The notes under the pieces are model-generated. The model did no database searches. It was given only the letters and a program-made list of their open reading frames with translations, and was not told the origin of the DNA. A DNA stretch of 64,000 nucleotides from Planctomycetia bacterium (GTDB lineage Bacteria; Planctomycetota; Phycisphaerae; Phycisphaerales; SM1A02): NCBI GenBank assembly GCA_005799475.1, contig SYGQ01000010.1, positions 2,291-66,290 of the forward strand, given 5' to 3'. The number at the start of each line of letters is the position of its first letter. Positions within the stretch are counted from its first letter, which is position 1. Positions 56,264-58,082 of this stretch are shown here, one piece after another. The position numbers were made by a program, and so were the translations under genes.

Positions 56264-57432
56264 TGATCGTCGCCCGCGCGACGGTGGCAGCGGCGCTGTT
56301 GGCACTCGCAGGATGCCAGCGACCCACGCCTGGGCCGCTCGTTGTCAGACTGCCCGAAGGGACGACCGCCGTTGCGCCAATCCCAGCGCAACCCGGAGTG
56401 AGCCAGGAAGCGGTCTTCTCACTCAAGCGCCTCGGAGAGGTGCCGTACGACGGATTCTCGCTGCCGCTCGTGTCGCCTGACGGTTCGATGGCTGCGATCC
56501 AGAGTGCGAACTCGGCCCAGTGGCCGATCCTCCTTGGGGAGGGCGCTGGCACCCCGCTTGCGAAGGTGACCATCGTGCCCCTCCACGCCAGTGGTCTTGC
56601 CCCGCTCACCGAGGCCGATGGAGCGTCGCTCCTGCTCGGGCGCTCGGTGGACGCTGCGGGATTCCTCGTGGAGGCGCCGCAAGCTGATGGGTCGAGGTGG
56701 ATTGGGAAGGTCGCGTGGACCGGTGGCGCTCCCGCGTGGCTCGTTCGGGACGACTTCATCAACGCCCATGCTTCAGCATCCTCGACGGGACTCCTCGCAT
56801 GGTCCCGTCGCGCGCGCGAAGGCACTGGCTTCTCGTTGGCGATCGCGCCCATTGTGGAGGGTTCGTGCGGTCCCGTCTGCATGGTGGAGTCTGTCCGTGG
56901 CGCGAGTTGGCATGCGCCGACATTCTCGGGGGATGGACGAACGCTCTACGCGCTACGACTCGACGACGGTGTGCTGGCCGCGTGCGCGTTTCCGGTTGTC
57001 GATGGACGGATTGAGACGCCGTCTGCCACGATGGAGTTGTCAGCGCGCGCGGATGCGCGCACGGCCTACCAGACGCTCACGGCGCTCCGGTGCGCTCGAA
57101 CCACGCGGGGAAGTCTCGCGCTGCATCATCCCAGGTTTGCGCGCATGGCGATTTGGGACGCGGATGAAAACTCCGTGGCGTTGGCGAGTCCGGGCAGCGT
57201 CGCCCTGGCGGATCTGCAGGACGGGCGCTTGCTCTGCACAAGTGCGACCCGGCTCGCGATCGAACCCTCGCCATCGCGATCCAAGGCGACCGAGGCGTCG
57301 GTCGCTCTCGCGCTTCTTGATGCGGTCTGGATTCCAGTCAGTCTGGCGCCTGATGGCACCGTGCTGATTGTCCACCCCATCGCAGGACACCTAGAATTCG
57401 CCGAGTTCCGGCTCGCGCGATCCACGCCCTAG
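56260..57432 (+). CDS. Lipoprotein with TolB/PD40-like beta-propeller repeats, translationally coupled to gspD
   Basis: The start overlaps the gspD stop (GTGATG). The lipobox is LLALAG|C. Repeated SPDGS/SGDGR/APDGT turns occur (VSPDGSMAAIQ, FSGDGRTLYAL, LAPDGTVLIV). Confidence 0.65.
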   Translation: MMIVARATVAAALLALAGCQRPTPGPLVVRLPEGTTAVAPIPAQPGVSQEAVFSLKRLGEVPYDGFSLPLVSPDGSMAAIQSANSAQWPILLGEGAGTPLAKVTIVPLHASGLAPLTEADGASLLLGRSVDAAGFLVEAPQADGSRWIGKVAWTGGAPAWLVRDDFINAHASASSTGLLAWSRRAREGTGFSLAIAPIVEGSCGPVCMVESVRGASWHAPTFSGDGRTLYALRLDDGVLAACAFPVVDGRIETPSATMELSARADARTAYQTLTALRCARTTRGSLALHHPRFARMAIWDADENSVALASPGSVALADLQDGRLLCTSATRLAIEPSPSRSKATEASVALALLDAVWIPVSLAPDGTVLIVHPIAGHLEFAEFRLARSTP

Positions 57433-58031
57433 CGACGCTTGGTCGGCGACTTCGGGGGCAACTTCGGGGGCAACTTCGGAGCGGGTGCTTTCGGCGCAGG
57501 CTTCTTGGGCTTCTTCTTCGTGTCGCCGTCGTCATCTTCTTCGTCACCGTCTTCTTCTTCGTCGTCATCGTCGTCGTCATCGTCGTCATCGTCATCGTCA
57601 TCGTCGCCATCGTCATCGTCGTCATCGTCGTCATCGTCATCGTCATCGTCGTCATCGTCGCCGTCATCCTCGTCATCGTCGCCGCCATCCTCGTCGTACT
57701 TGCCACCTGCGCGAGGCTTCGCTGTCTGTTCGAGTTCCTCGTTGGGACGGCTTTCTGGCTCGTCGGTTTCGCCTTCTCCCACCAAGTCATCGTCGCCCTC
57801 CTCGGACTCTTCGGTGTTCTCGCGCGGGCTCTTGGGATTGTCCTCGTCCTCGCCGAACCCGTCCTCGTCACCGAACTCCTCGTCGTCGAAGTCGTCGTCC
57901 TCTTCGAGTTCAAACTCTGGCTCCTCATCGTCGTCGTACCCGGCGATCAGAGGCGAAGATGGGTATGCCCAGAGAGGTTGGCGCGGGTCGAGGCGCGTCT
58001 CCTCCAGAGTCTCTGCAAATGTGGTGGTCAT
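57429..58031 (-). CDS. Hyper-acidic poly-Asp/Glu protein with a Lys/Pro-rich basic tail
   Basis: The ATG at 58031 gives MTTTFAETLEE. The ORF also opens with a GTG at 58082, directly after the upstream stop. The sequence includes DDDEEPEFELEEDDDFDDEEFGDEDGFGEDED and two uninterrupted Asp runs of about 17 and 15. It ends TKKKPKKPAPKAPAPKLPPKLPPKSPTKRR. Outside the repeat, codon third positions are G/C-rich in this frame. Confidence 0.65.
   Translation of the reverse strand: MTTTFAETLEETRLDPRQPLWAYPSSPLIAGYDDDEEPEFELEEDDDFDDEEFGDEDGFGEDEDNPKSPRENTEESEEGDDDLVGEGETDEPESRPNEELEQTAKPRAGGKYDEDGGDDDEDDGDDDDDDDDDDDDDDDDDGDDDDDDDDDDDDDDDEEEDGDEEDDDGDTKKKPKKPAPKAPAPKLPPKLPPKSPTKRR
57550..57695. repeat. 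Trinucleotide (GTC/ATC on plus, GAC/GAT on minus) microsatellite-like tract
   Basis: The run gtcgtcatcgtcgtcgtcatcgtcgtcatcgtcatcgtcatcgtc... is read directly from the sequence. It encodes the poly-Asp runs on the minus strand. Confidence 0.85.
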
Positions 58032-58082
58032 GGAAGCGCGGGGAGTATTCCCGCGGTCGCTTGCCTTGTCAACCCCTCCCAC

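Follow-up and report, generated by a model that had tools for sequence, protein, structure and literature searches.

What could a bacterium do with a protein that is dominated by aspartate and glutamate, runs through long uninterrupted stretches of aspartate, and then ends in a lysine- and proline-rich tail, and is such a reading frame a gene at all? The question is raised by a minus-strand open reading frame (ORF) in a 64,000-nucleotide stretch of contig SYGQ01000010.1 (GenBank assembly GCA_005799475.1, a planctomycete placed in the Phycisphaerales), which we analyzed at its full length and refer to as the window. An original prediction, made from the letters of the DNA alone, had singled out this ORF for an architecture in which a polyanion is joined to a polycation, and it recognized no family. 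We find that the ORF is almost certainly a real protein-coding gene, that it appears to found an undescribed gene family, and that the part of its product held most constant by evolution is a short acidic and aromatic motif rather than the poly-Asp tract or the basic tail. What such a protein might do is argued below, with correspondingly more caution.

Conservation of the acidic ORF

The acidic ORF recurs, in the same frame and at the same position, in about 40 contigs from freshwater Phycisphaerales, and as far as could be found it is confined to one clade of these Planctomycetota. A search with the N-terminal half of the protein returned fragments with a highly conserved stretch in common; they come from metagenome-assembled genomes of Planctomycetota, on contigs where the gene order is PTPS, ppk1, a small antisense ORF, a PQQ_2/TPR gene of about 1,400 residues, and the acidic ORF. 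Scanning by alignment for the large neighboring gene, with one genome per species, gave 11 loci from freshwater Phycisphaerales-type genomes, and the acidic ORF directly follows the large gene at each of the 10 that retain downstream DNA. A degenerate DNA pattern for the peptide DDFxDExFxDEDGF was used on lake metagenomes and viral contigs. From the lake metagenomes it retrieved 30 further loci, all of which contain the peptide, having been retrieved with that pattern; the C terminus of the large gene lies directly upstream in 29, the contig ends there in the remaining one, and a homolog of the convergent 390-residue gene lies downstream wherever sequence exists. The same pattern had no match in 2.9 million viral contigs. 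The original prediction had made its case depend on whether the ORF, its frame, and its position are conserved in related genomes, and all three are.

Searches that rely on alignment or on protein collections recovered far less. An alignment search of metagenomes for the motif gave 600 pattern matches, of which tblastn confirmed none, probably owing to low-complexity masking. A profile search of 1.84 billion representative proteins yielded only three N-terminal fragments and one weak match (P0008), and the full-length window protein was found neither in that representative set nor in a collection of 15 billion proteins. Since contigs break within the acidic tract and the window protein is itself missing from the protein collection, the handful of database relatives understates the family.

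Coding potential was judged from frames and substitutions. For residues 29 to 64, nonsynonymous divergence (pN) is 0.09 to 0.12 in eight of nine pairs and 0.18 against the distant relative L021, while synonymous divergence (pS) is 0.65 to 1.1, which is saturated, and 0.44 against L021; by this measure the core motif is under strong purifying selection at the amino acid level. In the window species, every copy with a complete ORF gives an identical 200-residue protein. High-GC genomes do yield many spurious long ORFs, and two antisense ORFs of 238 to 248 residues are open in the window, but the view that there is no gene here, only the by-product of a GAC/GAT repeat, or that the expressed frame is instead the plus-strand poly-Ser ORF at 57439..58185, is hardly credible when the acidic frame is the only one open in all 10 orthologs, the antisense frames carry stop codons in most relatives, the core motif is constrained as protein, a promoter-like element is conserved, and relatives have a Shine-Dalgarno sequence. 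The poly-Ser frame, which the original prediction had itself held out as a competitor, was rejected on this comparison of frames across the ten orthologs.

Start codon and promoter-like element

The list of ORFs gave a GTG-extended form of 217 residues at 57429..58082, carrying 17 extra codons, and it was this span that the original prediction reported. Its frame stands, but the ATG at 58031 is the likely start of the acidic protein. Gene callers on seven independent contigs called the identical 200-residue product from this ATG, the promoter-like element lies inside the GTG extension, and the protein of L021 also begins MTT, with its -10 hexamer at the same distance from the start.

The promoter-like element begins 10 nucleotides past the stop codon of the upstream 1,392-residue gene and, in the window, agrees with the consensus at 10 of 12 positions, where 0.1 such elements were expected from shuffled sequence. 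The sequence GGGTTGACA, with its perfect -35 hexamer, and the 17-nucleotide spacing are invariant in all 10 aligned loci. The -10 hexamer is GATATT followed by CCC(C/A)CGCC in 8 of the 10 and AATACT in the window, and the GC-rich stretch after the -10 is conserved. From these features of the sequence, the acidic gene is probably transcribed independently and strongly from its own promoter-like element. The ATG lies only 12 nucleotides after the -10 hexamer in the window and in L021, which would give an mRNA with little or no leader; in other relatives an AGGAG ribosome-binding site precedes the acidic gene.

An invariant motif between variable parts

The translated 200-residue product contains 62 Asp (31%) and 33 Glu (16.5%) against 20 Lys and Arg together, for a net charge of -75, and includes the peptide stretch MTTTFAETLEETR. 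Elsewhere in the 64-kb window, none of the frames contains eight or more consecutive Asp/Glu. An Asp- and Glu-dominated minus-strand ORF of about 200 residues, with Asp runs of about 17 and 15 around a single Gly and an abrupt polycationic Lys/Pro end, was what the original prediction had described, and the runs prove to be exactly 17 and 15, parted by Gly142, with the tail occupying residues 171 to 200 as claimed (net +12).

Where conservation falls along the protein was not as expected. The original prediction had taken the N-terminal 32 to 35 residues or so as the only ordinary-looking part, but residues 1 to 28 are the least conserved, belonging to a variable N terminus of about 28 to 45 residues across the family, and it is residues 29 to 64, despite their low-complexity look, that are best conserved and nearly invariant. 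The N-terminal segment of most members contains a Trp, which does not fall in one alignment column. About 30 residues from the N terminus, the family follows the pattern Y-D-x3-E-x6-E-x-DDF-x-DE-x-F-x-DEDGF (residues 32 to 59), which the window matches, and alignment of nine diverse members leaves the columns Y32, D33, E37, E44, D46, D47, F48, D50, E51, F53, D55, E56, D57, G58, and F59 without variation. The adjacent 1,392-residue protein is only 46 to 49% identical between the same genomes, and identity of its C terminus falls to 30% at locus L037. The 15 invariant motif residues, every aromatic one included, are thus common to members whose large neighbors are 30 to 50% identical. A second, semiconserved motif lies in the acidic linker, with the family form L-x-P/S-N-x-x-L-E-x-T; it reads PNEELEQT in the window and GPELMSNDKLEGT, ELLPNSKLEGT, or LEPQSLPNEELEET elsewhere.

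Two exceptional members help to rank the parts. The locus L037 (1682..2203) encodes a protein that is acidic up to its stop codon and has no basic block. The second, L021/P0008, on a 932-nucleotide contig (187..756), has no poly-Asp; where others have the tract and a Lys tail, it has a stretch rich in Pro and Arg and then, at the C terminus, about 70 residues that are not low in complexity and for which there are no homologs and no Pfam match. Both keep the core motif. These exceptions point to the motif as the universal element of the family and to the charge blocks as clade-level elaborations.

The poly-Asp tract

The poly-Asp tract, variable in length, carries a charge of about -50. The longest pure Asp run is 17 residues in the window and from 7 to 53 residues in relatives; to our knowledge, Asp homopolymers of 17 to 53 residues are extremely rare in bacteria. 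In the window the tract is written in mixed GAC and GAT codons, the longest run of one codon being three, and Tandem Repeats Finder reports periods of 15 and 21 nucleotides at 57527..57695. Within populations, tract length differs by 3 to 30 nucleotides, always a multiple of three, between loci whose flanks are 97.6 to 100% identical (the groups L027/L031/L039/L043/L047, L023/L033/L041/L046/L049, and L022/L025/L029/L038). These in-frame differences could be real hypervariability or assembly collapse of a trinucleotide-based repeat; since collapse of such a repeat would also keep the frame, the variation has to be read with that caveat. Stability of the tract in the window species fits its more interrupted codon pattern.

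Short-read contigs L007, L008, L009, L017, L020, L030, L034, L036, L040, and L051 end or turn chimeric in or just before the poly-Asp tract, and one database fragment (P0003) ends in a translated Illumina adapter (LIHISEPTRPY). A tract that breaks short-read assemblies would cause genes with extreme homopolymers to be lost systematically from protein databases, and the resulting underrepresentation of poly-Asp-type genes in collections is a practical blind spot.

The basic tail and charge patterning

Basic blocks across the family take three forms that are unrelated in sequence: (AKK)n and then a short acidic terminus of the type EE[R/N/P/K]DI; Lys/Pro/Gly/Ser-rich tails that end in PRKR and include (SGKP)n; and the Lys/Pro tail of the window, which ends in TKRR. 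In the window tail, KKKPKKPAPKAPAPKLPPKLPPK, the composition is repetitive and dominated by Lys, Ala, and Pro, with a 12-nucleotide tandem repeat at 57445..57479 coding for PKLP-PKLP-PKS; relatives with the first form have (AKK)5-7. The net charge of the relatives' basic block nevertheless stays between +11 and +22, mostly at +15 or +16, and total net charge lies between -60 and -86 in most members. Segregation of charge along the chain is 0.5 to 0.6, compared with 0.2 to 0.27 in shuffles. Together these values suggest selection on the charge of the basic block and not on its sequence. The large neighboring protein contains 5 Lys against 125 Arg, and a Lys-based tail beside so Lys-poor a neighbor points to selection for lysine specifically. 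The polyanion-polycation architecture, which the original prediction had called very unusual, is therefore both real and conserved, poly-Asp preceding a basic block that comes in three tail variants or more.

Predicted disorder and the absence of known families

AlphaFold2 gave a mean predicted local distance difference test score (pLDDT) of 55 and a predicted template modeling score (pTM) of 0.15, with no secondary-structure element of reportable length, from a shallow alignment of eight sequences. The acidic protein is accordingly predicted, with good confidence, to be intrinsically disordered. Its N terminus, MTTTFAETLEETRLDPRQ, contains no hydrophobic segment and thus no signal peptide, which disfavors a secreted role in biomineralization, one of the functions that the original prediction had put forward beside a mimic of DNA or polyphosphate, a divalent-cation buffer, and a chaperone for basic proteins. 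Neither the window protein nor a relative had a significant match in Pfam (E <= 0.01), NCBIfam, PADLOC, or PHROGs, Rfam found no RNA family at 56000..59000, and our literature search on poly-Asp or acidic proteins in Phycisphaerae or Planctomycetes returned nothing relevant. The sole relative with a source name is annotated as a hypothetical protein. That no family could be recognized from the sequence, as first reported, was borne out by each of these searches and by that of the PDB discussed below.

Possible functions of the acidic protein

An invariant motif with aromatic anchors, a polyanion conserved in composition only, and a Lys block conserved in charge only can be read together as docking combined with electrostatics. 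We tentatively favor, with rather less than even confidence, a protein without a fold whose invariant motif docks on a basic partner and whose activity is that of a competing polyanion. A specific basic protein would be captured at the motif, the docking site, where four Phe and one Tyr serve as anchors in a carpet of negative charge. The poly-Asp tract, flexible and polyanionic in the way of nucleic acid or polyphosphate, would compete with DNA, RNA, and polyphosphate for basic surfaces and may also bind Mg2+, Ca2+, or polyamines. The Lys tail would fold back on the tract, to which it is probably bound intramolecularly owing to the very high local concentration of the tract; once the tract was filled by Mg2+, Ca2+, polyamines, or a basic protein, the tail would be freed and could tether the protein to nucleoid DNA or polyphosphate. 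Action would come from electrostatic competition rather than from a fold or an enzymatic activity.

Several considerations weigh against this proposal. The mechanism is built on composition and analogy. A tail of +12 cannot neutralize a net charge of -75, so that it is doubtful whether the intact protein could bind DNA stably, and since L037 lacks a basic tail and L021 lacks poly-Asp, the family can do without either block. The neighbors of the gene are those of the cell envelope (the gene for the exported propeller/TPR protein and the type II secretion-like cluster) rather than of the nucleoid, and because the whole block is collinear in every relative, synteny says little about function, even with ppk1 nearby. 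A link to polyphosphate through ppk1 was suggestive but was given little weight for the same reason. Efficient full-length synthesis of the acidic protein is also assumed, and long acidic runs can abort bacterial translation (bioRxiv 10.1101/2021.02.02.429294).

A somewhat unlikely alternative is that the protein is a high-capacity, low-affinity cytoplasmic buffer or store for divalent cations or polyamines, in the manner of calsequestrin, with the tail positioning it and the length of the tract setting its capacity. The 52 acidic residues among the 58 of the tract, the up to 53 consecutive Asp residues of relatives, a net charge kept near -60 to -86, and a variable tract length that may be tunable within populations would all suit such a store, and all members come from freshwater plankton. 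In a pure buffer, however, both the 36-residue motif with its fixed aromatic positions and a basic block held at one charge would be superfluous, and L021/P0008 keeps the motif without any poly-Asp. With no signal peptide, Ca2+ storage would have to be intracellular, which is unusual given the very low free Ca2+ of the cytoplasm.

The gene could also encode an accessory (a regulator, cytoplasmic chaperone, or assembly factor) of the 1,392-residue protein, of the convergent type II secretion-like cluster, or of both. In all 10 genome loci with downstream DNA and in 29 of the 30 metagenome loci, the acidic gene comes straight after the large one, even where C-terminal identity is 30%, and the 390-residue lipoprotein and the secretin are always convergent downstream. 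We nevertheless consider this unlikely. The conserved promoter-like element belongs to the acidic gene itself; a signal peptide on the large protein and none on the acidic one would place the mature proteins in different compartments; and since all relatives share one gene order from ppk1 through to the secretin, the two genes may be neighbors by inheritance alone. The large protein was also rejected as an electrostatic partner, for its isoelectric point (pI) of 5.4 suits it poorly to pairing with a polyanion.

Pairing of the Lys tail with poly-Asp might instead act between molecules. In this case, the protein would be a block-polyampholyte scaffold that forms and dissolves a cytoplasmic condensate, recruiting a client through the motif, tuned by the length of the tract, and acting together with Mg2+, polyamines, polyphosphate, or DNA. 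We regard this as improbable. As acidic runs destabilize ribosomes, production of the protein with its tail may in turn hinge on Mg2+; if true, such a scaffold would be a new fold-free class of bacterial cell-organizing protein.

The destabilization of ribosomes by acidic nascent chains is sensitive to Mg2+. The poly-Asp tract could accordingly work at the level of translation, destabilizing the ribosome so that the yield of tail-bearing protein depends on Mg2+ or rescue factors and reports ion status. Two reports describe consecutive acidic residues that can abort bacterial translation (PMC9718836; bioRxiv 10.1101/2021.02.02.429294), and in this gene the basic tail is encoded only past the tract. 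More than 110 residues separate the tract from the N terminus, a position at which such runs are tolerated, and the effect is mostly cryptic in the middle of an ORF (bioRxiv 10.1101/2021.02.02.429294). There is, however, no downstream gene in the same orientation to be controlled, the next gene being convergent, and conservation of the motif and of the charge on the tail suggests that it is the completed protein that acts, which makes a purely translational role quite improbable.

A DNA mimic that inhibits restriction or defense enzymes, or an anti-defense protein of a phage or mobile element, is very improbable. Extreme negative charge is typical of Ocr and ArdA, but these mimics are folded and display carboxylates on a B-DNA-like scaffold, whereas the acidic protein is predicted to be disordered, a prediction that the depth of the alignment keeps from being absolute. 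The mimics are associated with phages, plasmids, or defense islands; the acidic gene belongs to the core set and keeps one chromosomal site in every relative, with no PADLOC or PHROGs match, and the absence of its motif from the viral contigs led us to reject a phage origin.

Comparison with known systems

A bacterial parallel to the favored docking and competition mechanism is found in myxobacterial CarD, whose C-terminal domain resembles HMGA in Myxococcus xanthus and histone H1 in Anaeromyxobacter; there, as in eukaryotic HMGA, an acidic region adjoins a basic DNA-binding region (PMC2919716). Function survives when the basic part of CarD is exchanged for one of another sequence type (PMC2919716 and its reference 15). 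The likeness lies in a disordered, highly acidic region beside a basic one in a single bacterial polypeptide. The acidic protein differs in having neither a CarD_CdnL_TRCF domain (PF02559; Pfam E <= 0.01) nor an AT-hook (RGRP), its acidic part is far larger and includes pure poly-Asp, with the protein at net -75, and we found no sequence similarity.

The tail had also been likened at the outset to those of histone H1 and AlgP. Its Lys/Ala/Pro composition agrees, with KPAP and KLPP in the window and (AKK)n in relatives resembling the repetitive disordered tails of AlgP and PhaF of Pseudomonas and of Hc1 and Hc2. The AlgP tail binds DNA and localizes to polyphosphate granules, and its repeat region spans 154 residues in a protein of net +55 (PMC9239181); repeat number varies in the present family, as is described for Hc2 of Chlamydia (PMC2848022). 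Proteins of the H1/AlgP/PhaF type, however, combine a repeat domain of more than 100 residues with a strongly positive net charge, while here a tail of 30 residues (+12) is attached to a protein of -75, so that the comparison does not extend to the protein as a whole. The acidic protein has no folded N-terminal domain and no homology to AlgP, PhaF, Hc1, or Hc2.

Other parallels concern the acidic part. In the acidic tail of HMGB1 and in the pairing of prothymosin-alpha with histone H1, disordered Asp/Glu polyanions compete for basic DNA-binding regions, intra- or intermolecularly. These eukaryotic nuclear proteins are unrelated in sequence; prothymosin lacks both aromatic residues and a basic tail, and HMGB1 has folded HMG boxes. 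The C terminus of calsequestrin, asporin, and the shell protein Aspein use uninterrupted or Gly-punctuated, length-polymorphic Asp runs for Ca2+, but they are secreted or luminal proteins with signal peptides, and calsequestrin has thioredoxin-like folds, compared with neither a signal peptide nor a Pfam match in the acidic protein. TonB carries a (Glu-Pro)n-(Lys-Pro)n spacer, and the delta subunit of Firmicutes RNA polymerase a polyanionic tail that mimics nucleic acid. TonB, however, has a membrane anchor and a C-terminal domain, and the delta subunit a HARE-HTH N-terminal domain; Pfam found neither kind of domain here.

For the motif, sequence search of the PDB returned only the N-terminal peptide of Pat1 on the DEAD-box helicase Dhh1 (PDB 4BRW), which matched residues 38 to 68 through ELEE-D-F/Y-x-DE-FGD at a nonsignificant E value of 0.58; the family profile returned nothing. 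The pair is useful as an analogy only, being an acidic motif with aromatic anchors on a basic folded surface. The principle of an acidic beside a basic disordered region thus has precedents; for a bacterial protein that joins an invariant acidic/aromatic motif to poly-Asp of great length and a short Lys tail, we found none. The acidic gene is in this respect a natural test case for whether fold-free, charge-patterned bacterial proteins work through electrostatic competition, cation handling, or condensates. Natural variants are built in, with different tract lengths, three tail chemistries, and forms that have no tail or no tract, which makes these ideas testable.

Genomic neighborhood

Coordinates of the acidic gene, its parts, and its neighbors are given in Table 1.

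Table 1. Features at the acidic locus, in window coordinates
Feature	Position	Strand	Details and basis
Putative promoter	58044..58072	-	TTGACA 58072..58067, 17-nucleotide spacer, AATACT 58049..58044; consensus scan and conservation
Coding sequence of hyper-acidic 200-residue protein	57429..58031	-	ATG 58031..58029, stop TAG 57431..57429; final 4 nucleotides overlap the end of the convergent 390-residue gene
Variable N-terminal segment, residues 1-28	57948..58031	-	MTTTFAETLEETRLDPRQPLWAYPSSPL; alignments
Invariant acidic/aromatic linear motif, residues 29-64	57840..57947	-	IAGYDDDEEPEFELEEDDDFDDEEFGDEDGFGEDED; alignment and selection test
Acidic linker, residues 65-117	57681..57839	-	Alignment
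Semiconserved motif PNEELEQT, residues 96-103	57723..57746	-	Alignment
Hyper-acidic tract, residues 113-170	57522..57695	-	52/58 Asp/Glu; composition
Asp17, residues 125-141	57609..57659	-	Followed by Gly142
Asp15, residues 143-157	57561..57605	-	Preceded by Gly142
Lys/Pro basic tail, residues 171-200	57432..57521	-	TKKKPKKPAPKAPAPKLPPKLPPKSPTKRR; net +12; composition
1,392-residue protein	58083..62261	-	Sec-type signal peptide, BamB-like PQQ_2 beta-propellers, TPR; Pfam PQQ_2 3e-14, TPR match
153-residue ORF	62300..62761	+	Lipoprotein-like N terminus (LIALVGC); opposite-strand overlap of about 80 nucleotides with the ppk1 3' end
Polyphosphate kinase 1 (ppk1)	62679..64000	-	C1 and C2 domains; cut by the window end
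Type II secretion-like cluster	~47400..57432	+	Convergent with the acidic gene; ends with the secretin and the lipoprotein listed below
912-residue secretin	53525..56263	+	Long Gly/Ser-rich inserts
390-residue lipoprotein			LALAGC, weak PD40 match; stop overlaps that of the acidic gene by 4 nucleotides

The order of ppk1, the 153-residue ORF, the large gene, the acidic gene, the convergent lipoprotein, and the secretin is the same in all relatives, the most distant one included, and the collinearity extends for more than 15 kb. The large protein, which is acidic overall, has weak NCBIfam matches to BamB and LapB. At the same-species locus L001, upstream genes have Pfam matches of the K-like and J-like types of the type II secretion system, and in L001 to L006 a full 749-residue ppk1 is preceded by PTPS. 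The 153-residue ORF had no family match; it was called, at 153 to 160 residues, in all relatives examined, and tblastn detects it even at the most distant locus, L037.

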